DNA of 64,000 bases from an uncultured delta proteobacterium (lineage in GTDB: Bacteria > Desulfobacterota > Syntrophia > Syntrophales > UBA2192): the NCBI GenBank assembly GCA_963705165.1, contig CAVPJD010000031.1, positions 34,819-98,818 of the forward strand, in the 5' to 3' direction. Below the pieces are notes generated by a model. It saw only the letters and a program-made list of their open reading frames with translations, was not told where the DNA came from and did no database searches. Position 1 is the first letter of the stretch. Every line of letters begins with the position of its first letter. A program made the translations under genes and the position numbers. Of the stretch, positions 16,435-41,624 are shown piece after piece.

Positions 16435-17310
16435 ATGACGTGGTTTCTGCTCTCCCTCACGGCCGCCCTGGGCCTGGCCACGGCGGATGCCCTGACGAAG
16501 CGCTTCTTCAGCGATCTGGCGCCCTACCGCATGGGGGTTGTGCGCATCCTGTCTACGGCCCCCTGGATGGTCCTGGCGCTTCTCTTCCTGCCCCGGGCCG
16601 TTCCGGATCAGACCTTCTGGCTTGCCATCGCCGCGGCGCTCCCCCTTGAGGTTTTCGCCTTTTTTCTCTACATGCGGGCCCTCAAGCTCTCGCCGCTTTC
16701 GCTCTCCCTGCCCTTTCTGGCCTTCACGCCCGTCTTCATGATCCTCACGGGCCGTCTCATCCTGGGCGAGGCGATCACGACGAGCGGCGTCCTGGGAATC
16801 CTCCTGATCGTCCTCGGGGCATACGTCCTCAATCTCTCGAAGATGAAGTCCGGGCTGCTGGGGCCCATCCGGGCTGTATTGCGCGAGCCGGGCTCCTGGA
16901 TCATGCTTCTCGTGTCGTTTATCTACTCGATCACGGCGCCCATCGGGAAGGTGGCCATCCTGCATTCCAACCCGTGGTTCTTCGCCGCCGTCTACAACCT
17001 GGTGCTCTCCGTGGTCATCGTCTCGCTCTGGCCCGTGGCTGCAGGCGGTGCGGGGGTGCGCGGCACTTTCAGCAAGCCCGGCCCCATGCTGCTCATAGGC
17101 CTCATGGCCGCCATGGAGAATTTTGCCCACATGATGGCCATCGCGCAGGTCGAGGCAGCCTACATGATCGCCGTCAAGCGCCTGAGCCTTCTGTTCGGGG
17201 TTCTCTACGGGGCGTGGTGGTTCGGGGAAGAAAACATCCGCGAGCGTCTGGCAGGCGCCGCGATCATGATCGCGGGCGTGTTCCTGATCCGCTGGGCACA
17301 GGGGGGGTGA
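16435..17310 (+). CDS. EamA/DMT-family transporter
   Basis: 291 aa with about 10 hydrophobic helices in a duplicated EamA-like pattern. Start abuts the patatin stop. Confidence 0.82.
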   Translation: MTWFLLSLTAALGLATADALTKRFFSDLAPYRMGVVRILSTAPWMVLALLFLPRAVPDQTFWLAIAAALPLEVFAFFLYMRALKLSPLSLSLPFLAFTPVFMILTGRLILGEAITTSGVLGILLIVLGAYVLNLSKMKSGLLGPIRAVLREPGSWIMLLVSFIYSITAPIGKVAILHSNPWFFAAVYNLVLSVVIVSLWPVAAGGAGVRGTFSKPGPMLLIGLMAAMENFAHMMAIAQVEAAYMIAVKRLSLLFGVLYGAWWFGEENIRERLAGAAIMIAGVFLIRWAQGG

Positions 17311-17317
17311 GCAAAAG

Positions 17318-17360
17318 GCCCGAGGAGCGAGGTTCGAGGTCTATTTCTGTCCTCGTTTCC
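17318..17360. repeat. Heptad-periodic element H4 (short right arm)
   Basis: Left arm: cccgagg agcgagg ttcgagg tc. After an 8-nt spacer comes a single gtcctcg unit. Confidence 0.55.
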
Positions 17361-17541
17361 AAAACCTTATTTTGAGCCGCCAGGCAAGCAAATCCATATT
17401 CACCAGGGCTTTGTAAAGGCATTACGTCTTAGATGTGATTTCACCTACCTATACGTAACAAAACACTGATTGACAGCTGATTGGCGCAGGGCCCATCATC
17501 TGCCTGTTTTTCTTGTGGATTCACAGAAAAAGGAGGCAGAG

Positions 17542-18672
17542 ATGCACGTTTCTGAGTTCAGCCTCAATCAGGCTTCGCTTTTGTCCGATGGGTTCTTTTC
17601 TGTCGATCCAATCGAGAACAGCCCACCTCGGATCGTCCCTTCTTATCCAAGTCACCATACCGAATCGAGCAGCGTCCTGAAGACGCTTCAGCGGATTCTG
17701 AACCGGCTCGGCAGGATGGGTCTGCCCGGAGCCGATCAGTTCGAAGCATTTCTCCGCCATGTCACCCGCCGGAACCGCAGGCCCCGTACGCTCTGCAGCC
17801 TGTGGCAATCCAACATGCTGTTTCTGTGCATGCTCAAGGATGCGGGCCGGCACGAGTTGGCTGGCATCAGCCGCGCTGACGTGGAGGCGTTCGTCGAGCG
17901 GGAACAGGACCGGGGGATCAAGATCACGACGATCCGGACGCGGCTCGTCTGTGTGTGCGCGTTCCTGCGGTACCTGGCCGAGGAGAAGGTCGTCTCCCCG
18001 GAGATCTTCGTGCGAAGGATCCAGCTGAAGCTGCCCGAGCGGCTGCCGCGGGCGATGGCGCCCGAGGATACGGCCAAGCTGCTTTCAGTCATTGATAATC
18101 CCGAGGACCGGACGATGATCCTGGTCCTGCTTCGGACGGGCCTGCGGATTGGCGAGCTTCTGCACACCAGGGTGACAGACGTCAACGTCCGGGAGCGCCG
18201 CATCGAGATCTACGAGGCGGAGAAGAACCGGCTGGGCCGTGTGGTGTACCTGAGCGAGGATGCGCTTTCGGCGTTGGGGATCTGGATGAGCAAACGAAAC
18301 GTCTTGAAGGAGTACCTGTTCTATGGACGTAGTGAGGATGGCCGGATGAGCTACAGCACGGCCCGGGCCCGGTTTGCCGGCTATCTCGGGAAGGCGGGGC
18401 TTGCAGATCGGGGCTATACGGTCCACACGCTTCGACACACCTTTGCGACGGAGCTTCTCAATGCCGGGATGCGCCTGGAGTGCCTGCAGGTGCTCCTGGG
18501 TCATCGAAGCATCGAGGAGACGCGGCGATATGCCTGCCTTACGGATAAGACACGGGAGGAAGAGTACTTCAGGGCCATGTCTGTAATCGAGAGGGGAAAC
18601 GACGATGACGGATGCGATCATCCACTGGCGGCGCTATCTGAAGAGGCGCAACTGCTCGCCCAACACGGTTAA
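17542..18672 (+). CDS. Tyrosine recombinase/integrase (XerC/D-like) 1
   Basis: C-terminal catalytic motifs HTLRHTFATELLNAGMRLECLQVLLGHRSIEETRRY. AGGAGG RBS before ATG 17542. Confidence 0.88.
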   Translation: MHVSEFSLNQASLLSDGFFSVDPIENSPPRIVPSYPSHHTESSSVLKTLQRILNRLGRMGLPGADQFEAFLRHVTRRNRRPRTLCSLWQSNMLFLCMLKDAGRHELAGISRADVEAFVEREQDRGIKITTIRTRLVCVCAFLRYLAEEKVVSPEIFVRRIQLKLPERLPRAMAPEDTAKLLSVIDNPEDRTMILVLLRTGLRIGELLHTRVTDVNVRERRIEIYEAEKNRLGRVVYLSEDALSALGIWMSKRNVLKEYLFYGRSEDGRMSYSTARARFAGYLGKAGLADRGYTVHTLRHTFATELLNAGMRLECLQVLLGHRSIEETRRYACLTDKTREEEYFRAMSVIERGNDDDGCDHPLAALSEEAQLLAQHG

Positions 18673-19483
18673 GAACTACCTGTGCGCGATCAGAAGCTTT
18701 GTGCTGTGGCTCGATGTGCCGATCGAGCACGTCACGCACTCCAAGGTCTCGCACTACATCGACGAGCTGATGAGGCGGCGCCTGAAGCCCAAGAGCATCA
18801 ACTGCCAGCTCAACGTCATCCGGCAGTTCTATCACTTTCTGCGGGACGAGGGCGTCCTGGACATCGCAAACCCGGTGAAAAACACGCATGCCCTGAAGAT
18901 GTCGCGGCCGCTGCCCCGGCACCTGAAGGACGAGCAGGTCGAGAGCTTCTTCCAGATCATCACTCGACCGCGCGACCGGGCCATGTTCATGCTGATGGTT
19001 CGCTGCGGGCTGCGGGTCGAGGAGGTCGCCCAGTTGACGCTCGGGGCTGTGGACTACAAACACCGGAAGCTTCTGATCGAGGACGGCAAAGGCGGAAAGG
19101 ACCGCATCGTGTATTTGAGTCAGGATGCCTGCCAGGCGCTTGTGGCCTATCTTCGGGTGCGGCCCTCATCGCGAACTCGTCGGATCTTTCTCGTGGAGAA
19201 GGGCCCTTGCACGGGCCAGCCGATCTCGATTCGCGGCATTCAGAAGCGCATGGAGCACTATGGCCGCAAGACGAAGCTTCGCGTCTCCTGTCATCAGCTG
19301 CGCCACACAATGGCCACGCAGCTGCTCAATGCCGATGCCGACCTGTGCACGATCCAGGACCTCCTCGGGCACAGCAACGTCAAAACCACGCAACGCTACT
19401 GCAGGGTGTCAAACCTGAAAGTGCAGCGGGATTACTTCAAGGCCATGGAGGCGATCATGAGACAAAACATAGACAGCACTTGA
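18605..19483 (+). CDS. Tyrosine recombinase/integrase (XerC/D-like) 2
   Basis: SAM-like N-domain. Catalytic HQLRHTMATQLL...LLGHSNVKTTQRY. Overlaps recombinase 1 by 68 nt. Confidence 0.9.
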   Translation: MTDAIIHWRRYLKRRNCSPNTVKNYLCAIRSFVLWLDVPIEHVTHSKVSHYIDELMRRRLKPKSINCQLNVIRQFYHFLRDEGVLDIANPVKNTHALKMSRPLPRHLKDEQVESFFQIITRPRDRAMFMLMVRCGLRVEEVAQLTLGAVDYKHRKLLIEDGKGGKDRIVYLSQDACQALVAYLRVRPSSRTRRIFLVEKGPCTGQPISIRGIQKRMEHYGRKTKLRVSCHQLRHTMATQLLNADADLCTIQDLLGHSNVKTTQRYCRVSNLKVQRDYFKAMEAIMRQNIDST

Positions 19484-19628
19484 TGAACAGGAAAAAGGAT
19501 GAGATGGTAAACAGGACTTAACAAACCAGAATCCGTGAGAAAAACAGACTTTGTTACGTATAGCACCTACAAGTATTCGCTTCCGGATCACGGCCGTTAC
19601 GAGTGATTACCGAGAGAAATAGACAAAA

Positions 19629-19657
19629 AAGGCATGGCCATTTCTGACCCTGCCTTT
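19629..19657 (-). terminator. Terminator hairpin of the substrate-binding protein gene
   Basis: aaggcatggccatttctgaccctgccttt, followed on the minus strand by T6. 28/30 identical to the hairpin at 41595-41624. Confidence 0.6.
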
Positions 19658-19668
19658 CAGTCGCTTTT

Positions 19669-20415
19669 TTATTTATAGGTTTTCAGAATCTTTTCCGTCG
19701 TGCCCTCCTTCTGCAAATCCGTGAGTGCATTTTCGACAGCTGCTATCACGTTTTGGGGCACTTGTTTGGTGAACATGATGTATTGATAAGCTGCATCAAA
19801 GGGTTTGTTCGCCAGGACGATCTGCTTCGAGAAACCACCATCTTTAATGTCCCATCCCAAACCGAGATCATGATAAAACACCAAATCAATCTCGCGCTCG
19901 CGCAGTTTCAACAGGCTTTCGTGAATCGTTGCAGCCTCCACTTGCCGAATGTCAGGCATTTTCGCGATCAACTCATTGATTGCGGCTCCGCGCAGCACTC
20001 CCACGCGCTTGCCCCGAACTGACATCTCCCCCGTATATTCAAAGGGATCAGAAGCTAACTTAGCGAACTGACCGCGGACTCCATAGACAGGAACGGATGC
20101 GAAGACGAAAGCCTTCTCACGGGCTGGGGATTTCATCAATCCTACAAATAGACTCATTTCATTGTTTTCCATCATCGTGTTGATCCGAGCCAATGAATAA
20201 GTTCCCGTTGGTTCGATGCGGATGTTCTGCTTTGCAAGCTTTTCATTTAGGGCATTGATCAAATCAATGCATATCCCTTTATTTTTTCCCCCATCTACAA
20301 AGTACCGTGGGGGACTATCTTGCTGATATCCAGTCCGGAGTACAGTTTCTGCGCTCCATCCAAAGCTTGTGAACACAAGCGTGCCCAGGACGACATACAT
20401 GATAATTCGTTTCAT
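19669..20415 (-). CDS. Periplasmic substrate-binding protein (SBP family 3-like)
   Basis: Signal peptide. Amino-acid-ABC-type binding-protein length and pattern. GGAGGG RBS. Low-GC region. Confidence 0.75.
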   Translation of the reverse strand: MKRIIMYVVLGTLVFTSFGWSAETVLRTGYQQDSPPRYFVDGGKNKGICIDLINALNEKLAKQNIRIEPTGTYSLARINTMMENNEMSLFVGLMKSPAREKAFVFASVPVYGVRGQFAKLASDPFEYTGEMSVRGKRVGVLRGAAINELIAKMPDIRQVEAATIHESLLKLREREIDLVFYHDLGLGWDIKDGGFSKQIVLANKPFDAAYQYIMFTKQVPQNVIAAVENALTDLQKEGTTEKILKTYK

Positions 20416-20471
20416 GATAGTGCCCTCCTTCCTTGTGACTTATTGATTAAGTAGGCTTTTAAGATGGGTAG

Positions 20472-20969
20472 TTATTTAACCCGCTCCCACACAATATCTA
20501 ATTTTCTGAGCTTGCCATCTAGCGCTCCGATTGTAGGTTCCGCGCTGTGTATCATCCGATTCCCCTCGAACCTGACGGTCCGCACTTGGACGGTGCCATT
20601 CCAGCTTTCATTCCAGGAAATATCCACCTTGATCTTAAGGGTCTTCCCATCGAAGGTGTAAGTCCCACCGTAGGCAATGATGGTCTTATAGAGCTCCACC
20701 AGGTCCTTGTCAGTCATCTTTGTCACATCAGGGATATTGGGCCGCTTGTCAGTAATTATACAAAGCACACGGCCGTCCCTCCCATACATGATATAGCCTT
20801 TGGGTGCCTTTCCGAATACATCCGACGTTTCACCCGTTGCCACAATCGTCCTCTTCCAGCTGACCAATTGCCATGTCCCGTACAGCTCATCTGCGGCAAG
20901 AGCTGAAGCGGATACGAACAGCACCAAGAGCAATCCCACGAGAAGCGATATTGCCTTCGTCGAAGTCAT
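20472..20969 (-). CDS. Lipocalin-like domain protein (secreted)
   Basis: YGTWQLVSWKRT...GKAPKGYIMYGRDGRV pattern of lipocalin-like domains. Signal peptide. GGAGGA sits 7 nt before ATG 20969. Confidence 0.72.
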   Translation of the reverse strand: MTSTKAISLLVGLLLVLFVSASALAADELYGTWQLVSWKRTIVATGETSDVFGKAPKGYIMYGRDGRVLCIITDKRPNIPDVTKMTDKDLVELYKTIIAYGGTYTFDGKTLKIKVDISWNESWNGTVQVRTVRFEGNRMIHSAEPTIGALDGKLRKLDIVWERVK

Positions 20970-21346
20970 GGTCGTGTCCTCCATTCTGTTAGAAAGTCGG
21001 TCTATTGAAGTCAGGAGAGGGCGCTTCAAGAAAAGTAGATAGAAAAGGCCCCAATGGGTGAATCCCCAAAGGGCCGCTCACATGGGCACCTTCCGGTAAC
21101 TCCTATACATACTGCACACCAGAAGGTTAAAGGGGAAATAGATGGATTGATGGATTTCGGATGGGTCTTTTTCGAGAAATATGCTCTTAATTATTTGGAG
21201 AGTCAAGGAGATAAATCGCTATAGGAAGAGCCGTCTTTTGAAAACGCAAGTGCATGATTTACGGGTGAAATGGGGTATTTCAAGGGAAGAGCTTAAAAAC
21301 ACGAGTACAGGAAGAAAGAGACCTTGTCGGGATTTCGTTTACCCGA

Positions 21347-22570
21347 CTATTTAAATCGGTTGAAGACTGCGTGATCAAGGATGATCTGGGCTGCACGCCG
21401 TGCCCCATCAGTGCGTATCTTCGCATGAGTTACCGCACGACCGATATTTTCGACGATCGCATCCGCTAGTAAGGAGGGGGTCGTTTGTCCTTGGGTCATT
21501 TTCACGCCTGCCCCTTGCCGAGACAGGCGATTAGCAATGATAATTTCTTGTTCAGCATGGCCTTCAATGGGGAAGAAAAGGAAAGGTCGTCGCAGAGCAG
21601 TTATCTCTATTGTTGTTGTACCTCCTCCTTGCACGATGGCAAGGTCACAGACGGCTAAATGCTTGTAAAGCTCCGGTACCATGCCATGCCGCTCGATACC
21701 TTGAGGAACATCGAGCGTAGCAGGGTCTATTCGCGGCCCACACACCAGAACCATTCTTAAGCCAGGAAGGCGCTGCGAGGCTATCGGGTAAGCACGGCCG
21801 CAGAGCTCGAGCAGCGAACGTCCCACCGCTGTGCCACCGACTGTACAGACCACGAGCGGTTCAGACCCATAGCCTAGCGCTGTGCTAACGCTTGCCCTGT
21901 CCTTGATCTGGTCGAGGTCGAAGCCAAGTGGATAACCGACAAATTCTATATGGTTCTCCGCATATCGGCGTCTGTTTGGCAGAAACATTCCAAATGGCTG
22001 GTCAGGCACATCTTCCAGTTCACCGAAGAAGATGGCTTTGTTGTTCTGCTTTGCCGTGATCCGTCCCTCCTGTGACCAGACAAAATTCAGTCCCCAGGCG
22101 CCGAGCCGCTCGATTGGATTGTTCGTGGTCTTATCCAGGCCGTAGAAGTCATACATCATTATGAATGGTATATCGTCTGGCAACACCTTCATCCCTAAAA
22201 CGTATGCGACGATGACCTCGTAAGTTTCATTGCCAATAATGGCATTATATTGGCCACACTTTGCCGCTTCACCAAGCACCCTGGCATTGTGGAGCCAGCA
22301 TCCGAGTGCGCGATATACATACTTTGTGAGGCTGAGATGTCCCCCATGGGCTGCCGCTTCAGCCTGATCCGTCTCGCATTGGTACTTCATAAATTCAGGC
22401 GCTAGGATCTCTCCTTTGGCGGCTAGCACATCAGAGGCGGGCGACCCGGCCAGCCAATAAAGTTCTATGCGGGGTTCCATTGCACGCAGTTGGTGGGCAA
22501 TAGCCAGATCGCGAGCTACATGTCCAAGCCCGATAGACCCGCTCACATAAAGCATGCGGATGGCATTCAT
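21347..22570 (-). CDS. Glycosyltransferase (GT1/GT28 MurG-like fold)
   Basis: N-terminal GSIGLGHVARDLAIA and a C-terminal nucleotide-sugar-binding-like GGGTTTIE. GGAG RBS. Confidence 0.65.
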   Translation of the reverse strand: MNAIRMLYVSGSIGLGHVARDLAIAHQLRAMEPRIELYWLAGSPASDVLAAKGEILAPEFMKYQCETDQAEAAAHGGHLSLTKYVYRALGCWLHNARVLGEAAKCGQYNAIIGNETYEVIVAYVLGMKVLPDDIPFIMMYDFYGLDKTTNNPIERLGAWGLNFVWSQEGRITAKQNNKAIFFGELEDVPDQPFGMFLPNRRRYAENHIEFVGYPLGFDLDQIKDRASVSTALGYGSEPLVVCTVGGTAVGRSLLELCGRAYPIASQRLPGLRMVLVCGPRIDPATLDVPQGIERHGMVPELYKHLAVCDLAIVQGGGTTTIEITALRRPFLFFPIEGHAEQEIIIANRLSRQGAGVKMTQGQTTPSLLADAIVENIGRAVTHAKIRTDGARRAAQIILDHAVFNRFK

Positions 22571-22661
22571 TCTAAACTCCTGCTGTTTGATTGCCTACCT
22601 ACCACTTACGACATTGGGAATTTGACATGGCAATAAATATTAGCATTTGGCCAAAATTCAA

Positions 22662-22698
22662 AAGCCTCCAAGAAGGCTTTTACTCCTCTTGGAGGCTT
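22662..22698 (-). terminator. Orphan 12-bp perfect hairpin (terminator-like on minus strand)
   Basis: AAGCCTCCAAGA, 13-nt loop, TCTTGGAGGCTT. The minus-strand tail is TTTGAATTTT. Confidence 0.45.
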
Positions 22699-23490
22699 CA
22701 CAGGACCATTTTTTGGTAACCCCACCTTATCATTTTACGCCTCAAACGGTTAGAGGTTGGGTTGGGGGCTACTGCATAGGTAGTATGGGAAACAGGGTTT
22801 TAAAATACTCTCAATGTGCACAACAGGGACAATGCAGAACCGTTTCTGACCGTGCCCGCATGAGCGGCGTATTCGCTTCCATATTGTTTAGTAAAATGGT
22901 GACGTATTGGACGTATACACTTGCGAAAATGCTTTATCAGCGAATGCAGGAAAATGAAGATCCTAACGAAGAGGCGTCTGAATTGAAAAAGCTAAAAAGA
23001 AGGGATAGTAGAAGAGTAATTTTCTTAAGAAGAATATACACTTGATTACTCAATTGTCAATTCGTCTAATGCTTAACCATATCAACAGGCTACACCCTTG
23101 ATTTCCACTTGAAGTGTTGAATAAATGAGAAATTAGGATAAGTAACGCTTCCAGGAAGGCAGGGGCAAGGATTCGGCTAGAATCCACCGCACGGATCGAA
23201 TCCCACATCAGCCCTATTTTATTACAGTTTTAAGATAAGTGGGGCCGGGTTCTGGGTCGACTTCATCAGCACCGTCCGGCCCCTTGCCTTTCCCTGCCGA
23301 GGGCGTATATTAATTATAGAAGAGTGAAAGCCCGCTTACCCCTGGGGTCCATCTGCCGATCCGGATCCCTTCTCGTTGCACATCCTCTTTCGGTCGTTGC
23401 CGGTTTCTCCATTCCTACAGATAGTGATTGGCTTCTTTCCGGTTTCCCCGGGCGGGCATATTGCCCCGGCGGGCTCGAGGAGGTGTCGCC

Positions 23491-23649
23491 ATGACATTGA
23501 CGTGTGTCGAATGCGGAAGGCTCGTGTCGAAGCTCAACAATGAGAAAAAGTGCGAGGAGTGCGCCAAGAAGGACGAATCCATGAAGTCCTACTTCACGAA
23601 ACTCTTCTTCATCAACCCGGGCTGCGCGAGACTGGTGCCGGTAACCTGA
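23491..23649 (+). CDS. Possible small zinc-ribbon protein (52 aa)
   Basis: MTLTCVECGRLVSKLNNEKKCEECAKK: a CxxC...CxxC pair. GAGGAGG sits 7 nt upstream of ATG 23491. Confidence 0.4.
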   Translation: MTLTCVECGRLVSKLNNEKKCEECAKKDESMKSYFTKLFFINPGCARLVPVT

Positions 23650-23755
23650 TCCTACTGCACTTTGTTGCCTGTAGTTTATTCCACTACTCGGCCTTTCTGG
23701 CTGAAGGGGAATTTCCGGGCCGCAGCCTGAAAGATCATAAAGGAGGTAGCTGGTC

Positions 23756-24010
23756 ATGAAAGACGCATCCATGGATATTTTGCGGTTCTGGAAGACGCAA
23801 TGGGAAGCTTACATGAAGACAATGGCGGCCATGCAGGAACAGGGGGAGACTATGCTGGAGATGATCCAGAAAAGTGGTGTGCTGCAAGAAGGGTCACTAA
23901 ATATGGTCAGGGCGTGGGCGAAAAAATACAAGGAAATCCAGAAGTCTTATCTTGATGCGGTTGAAGACCACTTTCAGAAACTCGACGATATTATTGGGGG
24001 TGCTCCCTGA
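23756..24010 (+). CDS. Hypothetical small helical protein (84 aa)
   Basis: AAGGAGG RBS 8 nt upstream. Terminator follows. No family assigned. Confidence 0.55.
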   Translation: MKDASMDILRFWKTQWEAYMKTMAAMQEQGETMLEMIQKSGVLQEGSLNMVRAWAKKYKEIQKSYLDAVEDHFQKLDDIIGGAP

Positions 24011-24044
24011 GGTGGACAAAATTTGTTAGAGAACGGACAGGACG

Positions 24045-24080
24045 AAGGCAGAGTCGATTGGCTCTGCCTTTTGCTTTTCT
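24045..24080 (+). terminator. Intrinsic terminator
   Basis: AAGGCAGAG-tcgattgg-CTCTGCCTT followed by ttgcttttct. Confidence 0.75.
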
Positions 24081-24229
24081 GCCGATTATTGATTGTAATC
24101 TTCTGCTCTGCAGAAAAATCCATTTTATCGAGTACAGGAAGCACTTGATTAGGACCATCAACGAGCGGGGGCTGCCATCATGATCGCCCGGGTATTCCTG
24201 ATCCGCGGGCACAGGCGGGGTGAACAGAA

Positions 24230-24302
24230 GGTTCGAGGATAAAGGCTCCAGGATCGAGGTTTTTTCTTTGTCCCTCAGTCCTCGTGCCTCGGACCTCGAA
24301 CC
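24230..24302. repeat. Heptad-periodic two-arm intergenic element H5
   Basis: Left arm: ggttcga ggataaa ggctcca ggatcga gg. Right arm: ccctcag tcctcgt gcctcgg acctcga acc. The outer 9 bp GGTTCGAGG / CCTCGAACC are perfectly complementary. Confidence 0.8.
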
Positions 24303-24308
24303 TTTTTT

Positions 24309-41443: not shown

Positions 41444-41594
41444 TCTTTAATGAAGTGGAATCCGCTAATCCCGCCATCTTGGGGTATGAGATGGGGGGTC
41501 AGACGCATTAGGAACGCATTAGGGGACGCCCATCAGGTTTGCTTCTTGCGAAGTTTGCGAAAGATTGGATCTGTTTTCTTCTGTTGAATAAATA

Positions 41595-41624
41595 AAGGCA
41601 GGGCCATTTCTGTCCCTGCCTTTA
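41595..41624 (-). terminator. Terminator hairpin
   Basis: AAAGGCAGGG-ccatttctgt-CCCTGCCTTT. 28/30 identical to 19629-19657. Confidence 0.6.

Follow-up and report, generated by a model that had tools for sequence, protein, structure and literature searches.

Insertion sequences are usually defined by DDE, HUH or serine enzymes. In the Cre/loxP and FLP/FRT systems, 13-bp inverted arms enclose a spacer whose identity decides which sites are compatible and whose orientation decides between excision and inversion. Five groups of tyrosine-recombinase transposons are currently recognized, namely ICE/IME, SE, GInt, RIT and Tn554 (2023 survey, PMC10214605). RIT (recombinase in trio) elements carry the three genes ritA-ritB-ritC (Ricker 2013, summarized in PMC8138268 and PMC10214605) and terminal repeats of about 34 bp, and their movement has yet to be reproduced under laboratory conditions (PMC10214605). 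In Helicobacter, the Xer-related recombinase XerT inserts TnPZ elements at the fixed heptamer AAGAATG, which stands as a direct repeat at both ends of the element and is found singly at unoccupied sites (PMC2731543). A two-gene recombinase pair of the size of an insertion sequence is not among the five groups, all of which are larger or comprise three or four genes. This report focuses on such a pair, found in a stretch of 64,000 nucleotides (the window) from the genome of an uncultured delta proteobacterium of the Syntrophales (GCA_963705165.1, contig CAVPJD010000031.1, positions 34,819 to 98,818). There, a 2115-bp segment consists of two overlapping tyrosine recombinase genes, A and B, between perfect 14-bp inverted arms. 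This two-recombinase element is apparently an undescribed new variant among tyrosine-recombinase transposons; no published description of such an element was found in the literature searched, most subscription journals being outside its coverage.

The structure of the segment had been pointed out in an earlier note made from the sequence alone, which described the two overlapping recombinase genes as its sole cargo, the perfect inverted ends, the heptamer CACCTAC outside both of them and a position at a junction between GC-rich and GC-poor DNA. All four descriptions held. Both products match PF00589 and nothing else sizeable is coded, as no further sizeable open reading frame was found between the arms in a survey of the segment. 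The left arm, CTATACGTAACAAA, has its exact reverse complement at the right end, and these are the only two matches in the whole window even when two mismatches are allowed, where 0.03 would be expected by chance and none of 100 shuffles gave two. CACCTAC adjoins both arms externally and on the same strand (Table 1). The right flank (19571-24134) has a GC content of 48.7%, against 59-61% in the sequence on either side. In addition to the arms, the element has a second, subterminal inverted repeat of 19 nt, 84% complementary and asymmetrically placed, and its neighbors are two convergent genes, for an EamA transporter and an SBP_bac_3 protein, whose 3' ends face it. With a length below 2.5 kb, mobility genes only, terminal inverted repeats and near-identical copies elsewhere, it has the attributes of an insertion sequence in the broad sense.

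Copies and family members were sought in public metagenomes, in metagenome-assembled genomes (MAGs) and by a scan of one genome per species. Relatives of recombinases A and B number in the thousands in metagenomes and are plentiful in those of sediment, soil, freshwater and wastewater; many of them lie on contigs of about 2.1-2.2 kb, i.e., the element's own size, which is the pattern of a repeat collapsed by assemblers. Contigs coding for a B protein of 92% identity carry the same arms and CACCTAC at at least five different flanks, and at least nine distinct flanks were counted, among JGI metagenomes and MAG MFD04716.bin.3.457, for copies 92-98% identical to that of the window. Four copies occupy separate sites in this MAG, with 98% identity to the window's element and 99.5-99.9% among themselves; three copies from metagenomes are mutually 99.8-100% identical. 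The one-genome-per-species scan returned 79 loci (best match, 99%), nearly all of which keep the A-then-B gene pair, and many MAGs have 2-4 copies. Among the loci listed, all are in MAGs, mostly of Desulfobacterota (Syntrophales/Smithella, Desulfobacterales), together with Nitrospirota and a few other phyla. A search of 72,556 plasmids gave no close relative, the best match being a XerD of 37% identity. The further copies for which the earlier note had proposed to search were found at many different sites in related MAGs and metagenomes, and the arm-plus-core motif is present around orthologous recombinase pairs. The segment 17449-19563 is an intact, recently mobile copy of a multi-copy family of elements resembling insertion sequences and is probably active. 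In one contig (CAWHEJ010000021.1, about 40.3-50.4 kb; L012/L013), three elements lie within 10 kb, an element with the core CTTCCTG standing between two inverted copies of the CACCTAC type, an arrangement in which inversion or loss of the intervening DNA could occur.

The behavior of the heptamer across these insertions bears directly on its interpretation. Every copy of the window's lineage has CACCTAC at both ends, in all independent insertions examined. The same MAG MFD04716.bin.3.457 contains a second lineage, 84% identical, which is bordered on each side by CTTCCTG in both of its insertions, at separate sites, and whose arms are identical to the window's on the left and differ by one base on the right. 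Among 59 non-redundant insertions, 18 different 7-mers were counted (e.g., CACCTAC, CTTCCTG, CTTGCCA, GCTGTCA, CAAATAC, GTAGGTG and CGTGCCT), each fixed in its lineage and equal at both ends in nearly all cases, and the arms stay CTATACGTAACAAA-like throughout. Since the heptamer is fixed within a lineage, differs between lineages with the same arms and is single in element-free sites, it is a crossover core common to element and target and not a duplication made on insertion. The earlier note had left open whether CACCTAC was a target-site duplication or a shared crossover core; the latter part stands, with 7-mers fixed by lineage and a single CACCTAC at element-free sites, and the former does not, the 7-mer being no random target. 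It is thus highly improbable that the element is a classical transposon whose CACCTAC repeats are a 7-bp target-site duplication arising from staggered cuts. Identical flanking 7-mers and short terminal inverted repeats are indeed typical of insertion sequences, but all independent insertions of a lineage have the same 7-mer, which varies from one lineage to another only, the element codes for no DDE, HUH or serine enzyme, and its joined form, with one 7-mer between the arms, has the layout of a tyrosine-recombinase site.

New cores would have a simple route of origin in insertion at an imperfectly matching site followed by repair. Two groups of elements deserve mention in their own right. In L077, L085 and L088, the latter two from Nitrospira-type MAGs, the arms are perfect and the end 7-mers are unequal, those of L085 and L088 agreeing in the last four bases, GGTG, only; this sub-lineage may have a lower need for core identity or may move as Tn554 and the SEs do. 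The core of the L040/L042 lineage, GTAGGTG, is exactly CACCTAC read on the opposite strand, its orientation with respect to the genes being reversed, and a reverse-complement pair among 18 cores has a probability of about 1% by chance.

Sites without the element have also been found. Two relatives of this locus, one from ENA (L091/L099) and one from JGI (L092/L100), share 92-94% identity with the window as far as base 17448 and contain one CACCTAC and no element. An empty site with a single heptamer was among the checks that the earlier note had put forward, and it is borne out in part, as these single-CACCTAC sites match the window on the left flank only; the public collections searched held no element-free site matching the window on both flanks. 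When the two ends of the element are joined, they form a 14-7-14 lox-like site composed of arm', 7 bp and arm, TTTGTTACGTATAG-CACCTAC-CTATACGTAACAAA. A scan of metagenomes for arm-N7-arm yielded a SPAdes contig (L098) of a related element on which a right end, one TTCCTGT and a left end follow one another, the other end of the contig showing a right end, TTCCTGT and chromosome.

The asymmetric cores have the same orientation at both ends, as direct repeats; their recombination therefore leads to excision of the element and not to its inversion. This bears on a further proposal of the earlier note, that of an invertible switch in which the recombinases would flip the 2.1-kb segment between its inverted arms and so alter the expression of neighboring genes. 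The perfect inverted repeat of the arms invites this proposal, and NCBIfam models of tyrosine-type DNA invertases give weak scores of 30-47 bits, their cut-offs lying near 221. The arms are, however, the two halves of one lox-like site, and tyrosine recombinases delete DNA between direct-repeat asymmetric cores. The same element lies at many unrelated loci with no conserved neighbor, element-free sites and a joined-end form exist, and the flanking genes end convergently, so that there is nothing to switch. In addition, no inversion joint was found in seven metagenome runs (X1, X2, X4-X7 and X9), which were examined as Logan contigs, in which rare variants are dropped. An invertible switch is therefore extremely improbable.

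Other lox-like arrangements were encountered during these searches. A solo site, ATTATGTTACGTATAG-CACCTGC-CTATACGTAACATAAT, lies with no recombinase nearby between a gene for a GGDEF/EAL protein and a gene for a beta-propeller protein (L094, 1091-1119, equivalent to L095, 1912-1940) and may be a remnant or a resident site. In L096 (101-129) and L097 (248-276), the core of the element stands directly beside a further arm-like 11-mer on the chromosomal side, as would result if insertion had taken place at an existing attL or attR, next to a remnant or a related element. Viral contigs were also scanned for arm-N7-arm, and none had CTATACG-type arms; the one match with CTGTACG-type arms (L105), with no recombinases nearby, was discarded as a seemingly unrelated palindrome.

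The chromosomal side of the insertion sites has a signature of its own. Independently of the core, the flanks follow the consensus GATTW-N7-WARTC, an imperfect palindrome unlike the arms of the element (CTATACG...), with T at -2 in 41 of 57 sites, A at +2 in 41 of 56 and T at +4 in 45 of 56 (P from 1e-11 to 1e-15). CACCTAC itself occurs nine further times in the window, inside genes and with no insertions, which means either that the core alone is insufficient or that most such sites are simply unused. Within the 64-kb window, the target was not found to be a member of a repeat family.

The model favored here for the two-recombinase element is one of integration and excision, to which a probability of roughly 85% is given. 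Insertion would take place by conservative site-specific recombination with a chromosomal site made of the same 7-bp core and weak palindromic half-sites (GATTW-core-WARTC). The core would then be present once at each end, as a direct repeat, and recombination between these direct cores would excise the element and leave one core behind. The choice of target would be set mainly by the 7-bp core, which varies between lineages with constant arms, in the manner of heterospecific lox variants. We infer that A and B catalyze these reactions, and the difference between the half-sites of the target and those of the element would offer one rationale for the presence of two recombinases.

Several observations weigh against integration and excision as a complete account. 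On the one hand, the presence of several copies per genome represents a net gain of copies that plain cut-and-paste alone does not give, and the identity of the cores has exceptions, the two cores of the same element differing by 1-3 mismatches in about 7 of 61 cases. On the other hand, the element-free relatives share the left flank and the core of the window and differ in their right flanks, and are not strict before-and-after pairs. For the insertions L002 and L003, all contigs with their neighbors also carry the element, with no empty site covering both flanks. The junction on L098 could be that of a circle or that of a head-to-tail tandem. Finally, the seven metagenome runs contained no excision circle or precise-excision joint for the window's lineage. 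The earlier note had proposed reads as a check for excision or inversion; in the Logan contigs neither joint was seen for this lineage, and joined ends are known only from the relative L098.

The first two of these points are those that speak for a replicative, strand-biased copy-out as in SEs and Tn554, in which the donor would stay in place and a circle with 7 bases of one flank would insert. Several near-identical copies per genome would be expected from it, and the unequal end 7-mers of about 7 of the 61 elements, as well as three Nitrospira-type copies agreeing in the 3' four bases only, recall the 6-bp "footprint" of SEs and Tn554 (PMC10214605). Yet the great majority of copies have identical cores that match a pre-existing target core, which SEs and Tn554 do not require, and the accessory genes tfp, srap and tnpC are absent. 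Copy-out is accordingly considered unlikely, and integration and excision at a shared core is retained.

Both enzymes are tyrosine recombinases with a complete catalytic set. They match PF00589 with E-values of 8e-34 (A) and 8e-38 (B), have N-terminal SAM-like domains and possess the residues that define the superfamily (R-K-H-R-H/W-Y). These residues are R202, K228, H295, R298, H321 and Y330 in A, invariant in 27 sequences, and R137, K162/K165, H230, R233, H256 and Y265 in B, invariant in 52 sequences. In both genes, synonymous codon changes outnumber non-synonymous ones by about 2:1, and the non-coding ends of the element are more conserved than the genes; both genes are under purifying selection. 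The closest solved structures are those of XerA (4a8e) and XerD (1a0p), and the NCBIfam scores of A and B for XerC, XerD, XerA and IntI are all well below the cut-offs. With 119-208 bits for TIGR02224 and TIGR02225, against cut-offs of 335 and 330, and with genes that are multi-copy and mobile, A and B are not equivalogs of XerC and XerD, nor are they integron integrases (TIGR02249, which gives 74 and 107 bits and has its cut-off at 265). The AlphaFold model of A (pLDDT 77) consists of a disordered, unconserved N-terminus (residues 1-39), one extra helix and core-binding and catalytic domains of standard fold. The possibility that A has a distinct N-terminal domain for arm binding, as lambda Int does, was considered and rejected, residues 1-39 being unconserved, predicted to be disordered and followed by a single helix.

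As references, the phylogenetic tree included XerC of E. coli, XerD of Acinetobacter and one RIT trio carried by a Mesorhizobium plasmid, a thin outgroup with long branches. In this tree, A (support 100/100) and B (99/97) each form a clade; the two are sisters (98/91), and RitA, RitB and RitC and the Xer references all fall outside them. This answers the earlier note's suggestion to compare the recombinases with those of RIT elements, insofar as A and B fall outside the RitA/B/C of this one trio, with which they share 24-34% identity. The internal branching of the A tree and that of the B tree are congruent, and the phylogeny fits an old duplication followed by co-evolution.

The ends of the element are organized in a conserved manner. 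Family-wide, the left end consists of the arm, TTGACA, 17-18 nt, CATCAT, a CTGTTTTTCT box, a loop and AAGGAGGCAGAG-ATG, and the right end of the arm, 2-3 nt and an inverted copy of the left subterminal box; TTGAC and CATCAT boxes lie at the same positions in nearly all left ends of the family. The region around the start of gene A can fold into a hairpin of -28.2 kcal/mol (z = -3.5), a stability reached by none of 200 shuffles. In an alignment of the family, the proportion of paired cells is 86% in the hairpin and 57-72% in slid controls; compensatory cells number 20 in the hairpin and 0-6 in the controls. One pair is G-C in 13 sequences and A-U in 11, and the next pair occurs as C-G, U-G and U-A. 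The 5' half of the hairpin overlaps the predicted -10 box. Such a hairpin would hide the ribosome-binding site and hold down the expression of recombinase A. With the predicted transcription start located at its left half or downstream of it, the transcripts blocked would be those that read through from outside; these would fold in this way, and the transcript of the element itself might escape the folding. Classical insertion sequences use a start-hiding hairpin of this kind against read-through expression. For the element described here, both the promoter and the hairpin are assigned a putative function from conservation and predicted folding.

Table 1. Coordinates of the two-recombinase element and of the neighboring features in the window.
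Feature	Position	Strand	Evidence or remark
Left 7-bp core CACCTAC, attL side	17442..17448	+	Preceded by target-type half-site GATTT; single copy here in element-free L091/L099 and L092/L100
Left 14-bp arm CTATACGTAACAAA, presumed recombinase-binding half-site; first base of the element	17449..17462	+	Conserved in about 60 family members
Promoter-like TTGACA-18-CATCAT, putatively of the recombinase operon	17470..17499	+	10/12 matches
Predicted hairpin pairing CAUCUGCCUGUUUUUCU with AGAAAAAGGAGGCAGAGAUG; covers Shine-Dalgarno sequence and start codon of recombinase A	17494..17544	+	Folding, compensatory changes
Left subterminal box CTGTTTTTCTTGTGGATTC, 41 nt inside the arm	17504..17522	+	CTG(T/A)TTTTTCT box kept at both ends in the family
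Recombinase A, 376 aa	17542..18672	+	PF00589, catalytic residues
Recombinase B, 292 aa, Xer-sized; first 68 nt shared with the 3' end of A	18605..19483	+	PF00589, catalytic residues
Right subterminal box, inverted, 2 nt inside the right arm	19529..19547	-	Repeat search, family conservation
Right 14-bp arm; last base of the element	19550..19563	-	Exact reverse complement of the left arm
Right core CACCTAC, attR side	19564..19570	+	Followed by target-type half-site AAGTA
Strain-specific low-GC segment with SBP_bac_3, lipocalin-like and glycosyltransferase-like genes	19571..24134	.	Unrelated 5.5 kb in L099
Intergenic CTTCCTG (core of the second lineage), then TACTCG as at 24135; 13-nt repeat	21308..21314	-	
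CTTCCTG (CAGGAAG on the + strand)	24135..24141	-	Synteny with L099 and other metagenome contigs resumes
82%-identical second copy of the last EamA codons and downstream region (cf. 17250-17352)	24165..24267	+	

The low-GC segment to the right of the element is strain-specific, and its borders coincide with core sequences. On both sides, L099 and the window are syntenic. The homology breaks off immediately after CACCTAC (17448) and starts again precisely at CAGGAAG (24135). Between these borders, the window contains the element and 4.5 kb of 48.7% GC, and L099 (11022-16536) an unrelated sequence of 5.5 kb. In other samples (X2/X3, X7 and L100), the left flank and core run into yet other sequences, so that at least five versions are known, and the shared right side always begins at 24135, after at least four different sequences. 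The left border site, which contains the element, is GATTT-CACCTAC-AAGTA (17437-19575); the right one, on the other strand, is AAGTG-CTTCCTG-TACTC (24130-24146). Target-type half-sites lie on the variable side of both borders (AAGTA... and ...GAGTA). The 13-nt repeat CGAGTACAGGAAG, which comprises CGAGTA and CAGGAAG, is found both between genes at 21296-21314 and at the right border (24123-24141), and the segment may consist of two units split by a CTTCCTG core. A 7-mer at a breakpoint would be one of the 18 cores, on either strand, with a chance of about 0.002, a coincidence that was noticed after the fact.

It is tempting to regard the border sites as hot spots for the exchange of gene segments, a tentative and rather doubtful idea. 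In the same vein, lineage cores might serve as addresses, lineages with the same arms driving a natural "recombinase-mediated cassette exchange" in these sediment bacteria, which is possible at best. A host recombination platform would go further, the recombinase pair and its sites serving mainly to swap the adjacent gene segment in an integron-like manner rather than to spread selfishly. The exact delimitation of the segment by CACCTAC (17448) and CAGGAAG (24135), the number of alternative sequences at either border and the second CGAGTA/CAGGAAG between genes inside the segment would all be in keeping with such a platform. It is nevertheless distinctly unlikely: the element is found at many loci that have no such context, the L099 segment differs yet holds no recombinase, and the two borders have two different cores. 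Moreover, a similar pattern would arise if an islet that had entered by site-specific insertion were later exchanged by ordinary homologous recombination, and the match at the right border was found post hoc. Movement of the element as a unit, by integration and excision, is the reading preferred for this locus too.

A number of other repeats and junctions were noted around the segment. In run X9, the end of the low-GC segment (24060-24138) is joined to another sequence after CAGG. The second copy of the EamA 3' end beyond the right border has the pattern of DNA that inserts in the 3' end of a gene and brings a replacement end. Tandem CGAGGNN heptamers follow the EamA stop codon and its remnant (17318-17345 and 24268-24306), L091 having one unit more; the summed word depth at 24268-24306 is about 190-780 in four metagenomes, indicating a widespread small repeat. 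A terminator-like piece of about 33 nt (AAAGGCATGGCC...CTGCCTTT) is present at 19625-19657 and 41594-41623 and shows high depth and many flanks in metagenome contigs. Gene look-ups beside and inside the low-GC segment yielded nothing new.

A family of this kind would be of interest for several reasons. As a two-gene, 2.1-kb, multi-copy element, it would be a minimal tyrosine-recombinase transposon and a sixth group beside the five recognized ones (PMC10214605). Its shared arms, presumably shared enzymes and varying 7-bp spacer constitute a natural experiment on target specificity in the absence of protein change, and the family is a possible source of orthogonal recombinase/site pairs. The elements probably break assemblies of Desulfobacterota and Nitrospirota, and at the locus in the window they mark the exact borders of strain-specific gene content. 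Should the doubtful idea of cassette exchange be true, they would be both selfish insertion sequences of a new class and an engine of integron-like, address-coded gene swapping, with a core that is freely re-programmable without any change of protein.

When set beside the systems introduced above, the element falls outside the definitions of RIT, Tn554, SE/GInt and integrons, in agreement with the earlier note, which could assign it to no named family. With the RIT elements it shares a small size, a content limited to tandem, overlapping "simple" Xer-like tyrosine recombinases, inverted-repeat ends and the frequent presence of several copies. It differs from them in having two genes and 14-bp arms instead of three genes and repeats of about 34 bp, and gene number, terminal repeat length and position outside the RitA/B/C clade all separate it from that group. 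Like Tn554, SEs and GInts, it has two catalytic tyrosine recombinases and is not self-transmissible, and those elements have imperfect inverted-repeat ends that join around a 6-bp spacer. They need, however, additional genes (tnpC; tfp and srap; ginC and ginD), and have one large recombinase and cargo. The gene content of Tn554 (tnpA, a large tnpB and tnpC) is not found here, where there is no third open reading frame and B has 292 aa, and the two genes are not the four of SEs and GInts (intA-tfp-intB-srap or ginA-D). In Tn554 and SEs, the 6-bp spacer beside one end travels with the element, so that the footprint differs between the ends, and there is no duplication of the target, whereas the 7-bp cores are identical here; the 7-mers are equal in nearly all of the 59 insertions and element-free relatives already have one of them at this locus, 7 of 61 elements being unequal.

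As for integrons, the likeness lies in a tyrosine recombinase beside a variable, cassette-like segment with short conserved cores at the junctions. The difference is that no IntI signature is present and that the mobile part is the recombinase unit itself; attC-type hairpin repeats were not detected at the locus. The nearest relatives in sequence and structure are XerA, XerC and XerD, and A and B form a paralogous pair as do the recombinases of the XerC/XerD-dif and IMEX systems; by analogy with XerC/XerD, they may act as a heterotetramer. Unlike XerC/XerD-dif and its dependents, the element has its own enzymes and site, is multi-copy, does not insert at the unique dif and has scores far below the cut-offs. 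Its joined ends recall the sites of Cre and FLP, with two inverted arms (of 14 bp here) around an asymmetric spacer of 7-8 bp. Cre and FLP are, however, single recombinases acting on two identical full sites, while the target here has different, weak arms and there are two recombinases. The nearest parallel for the target logic is TnPZ/XerT, with its Xer-related recombinase and fixed heptamer target. The element shows the same heptamer behavior, which denotes a shared mode of action and not shared ancestry. TnPZ elements are conjugative (type IV secretion genes), span tens of kb and have one recombinase and much cargo, whereas the element described here has 2.1 kb, two recombinases, no cargo and, across its family, many lineage-specific heptamers.

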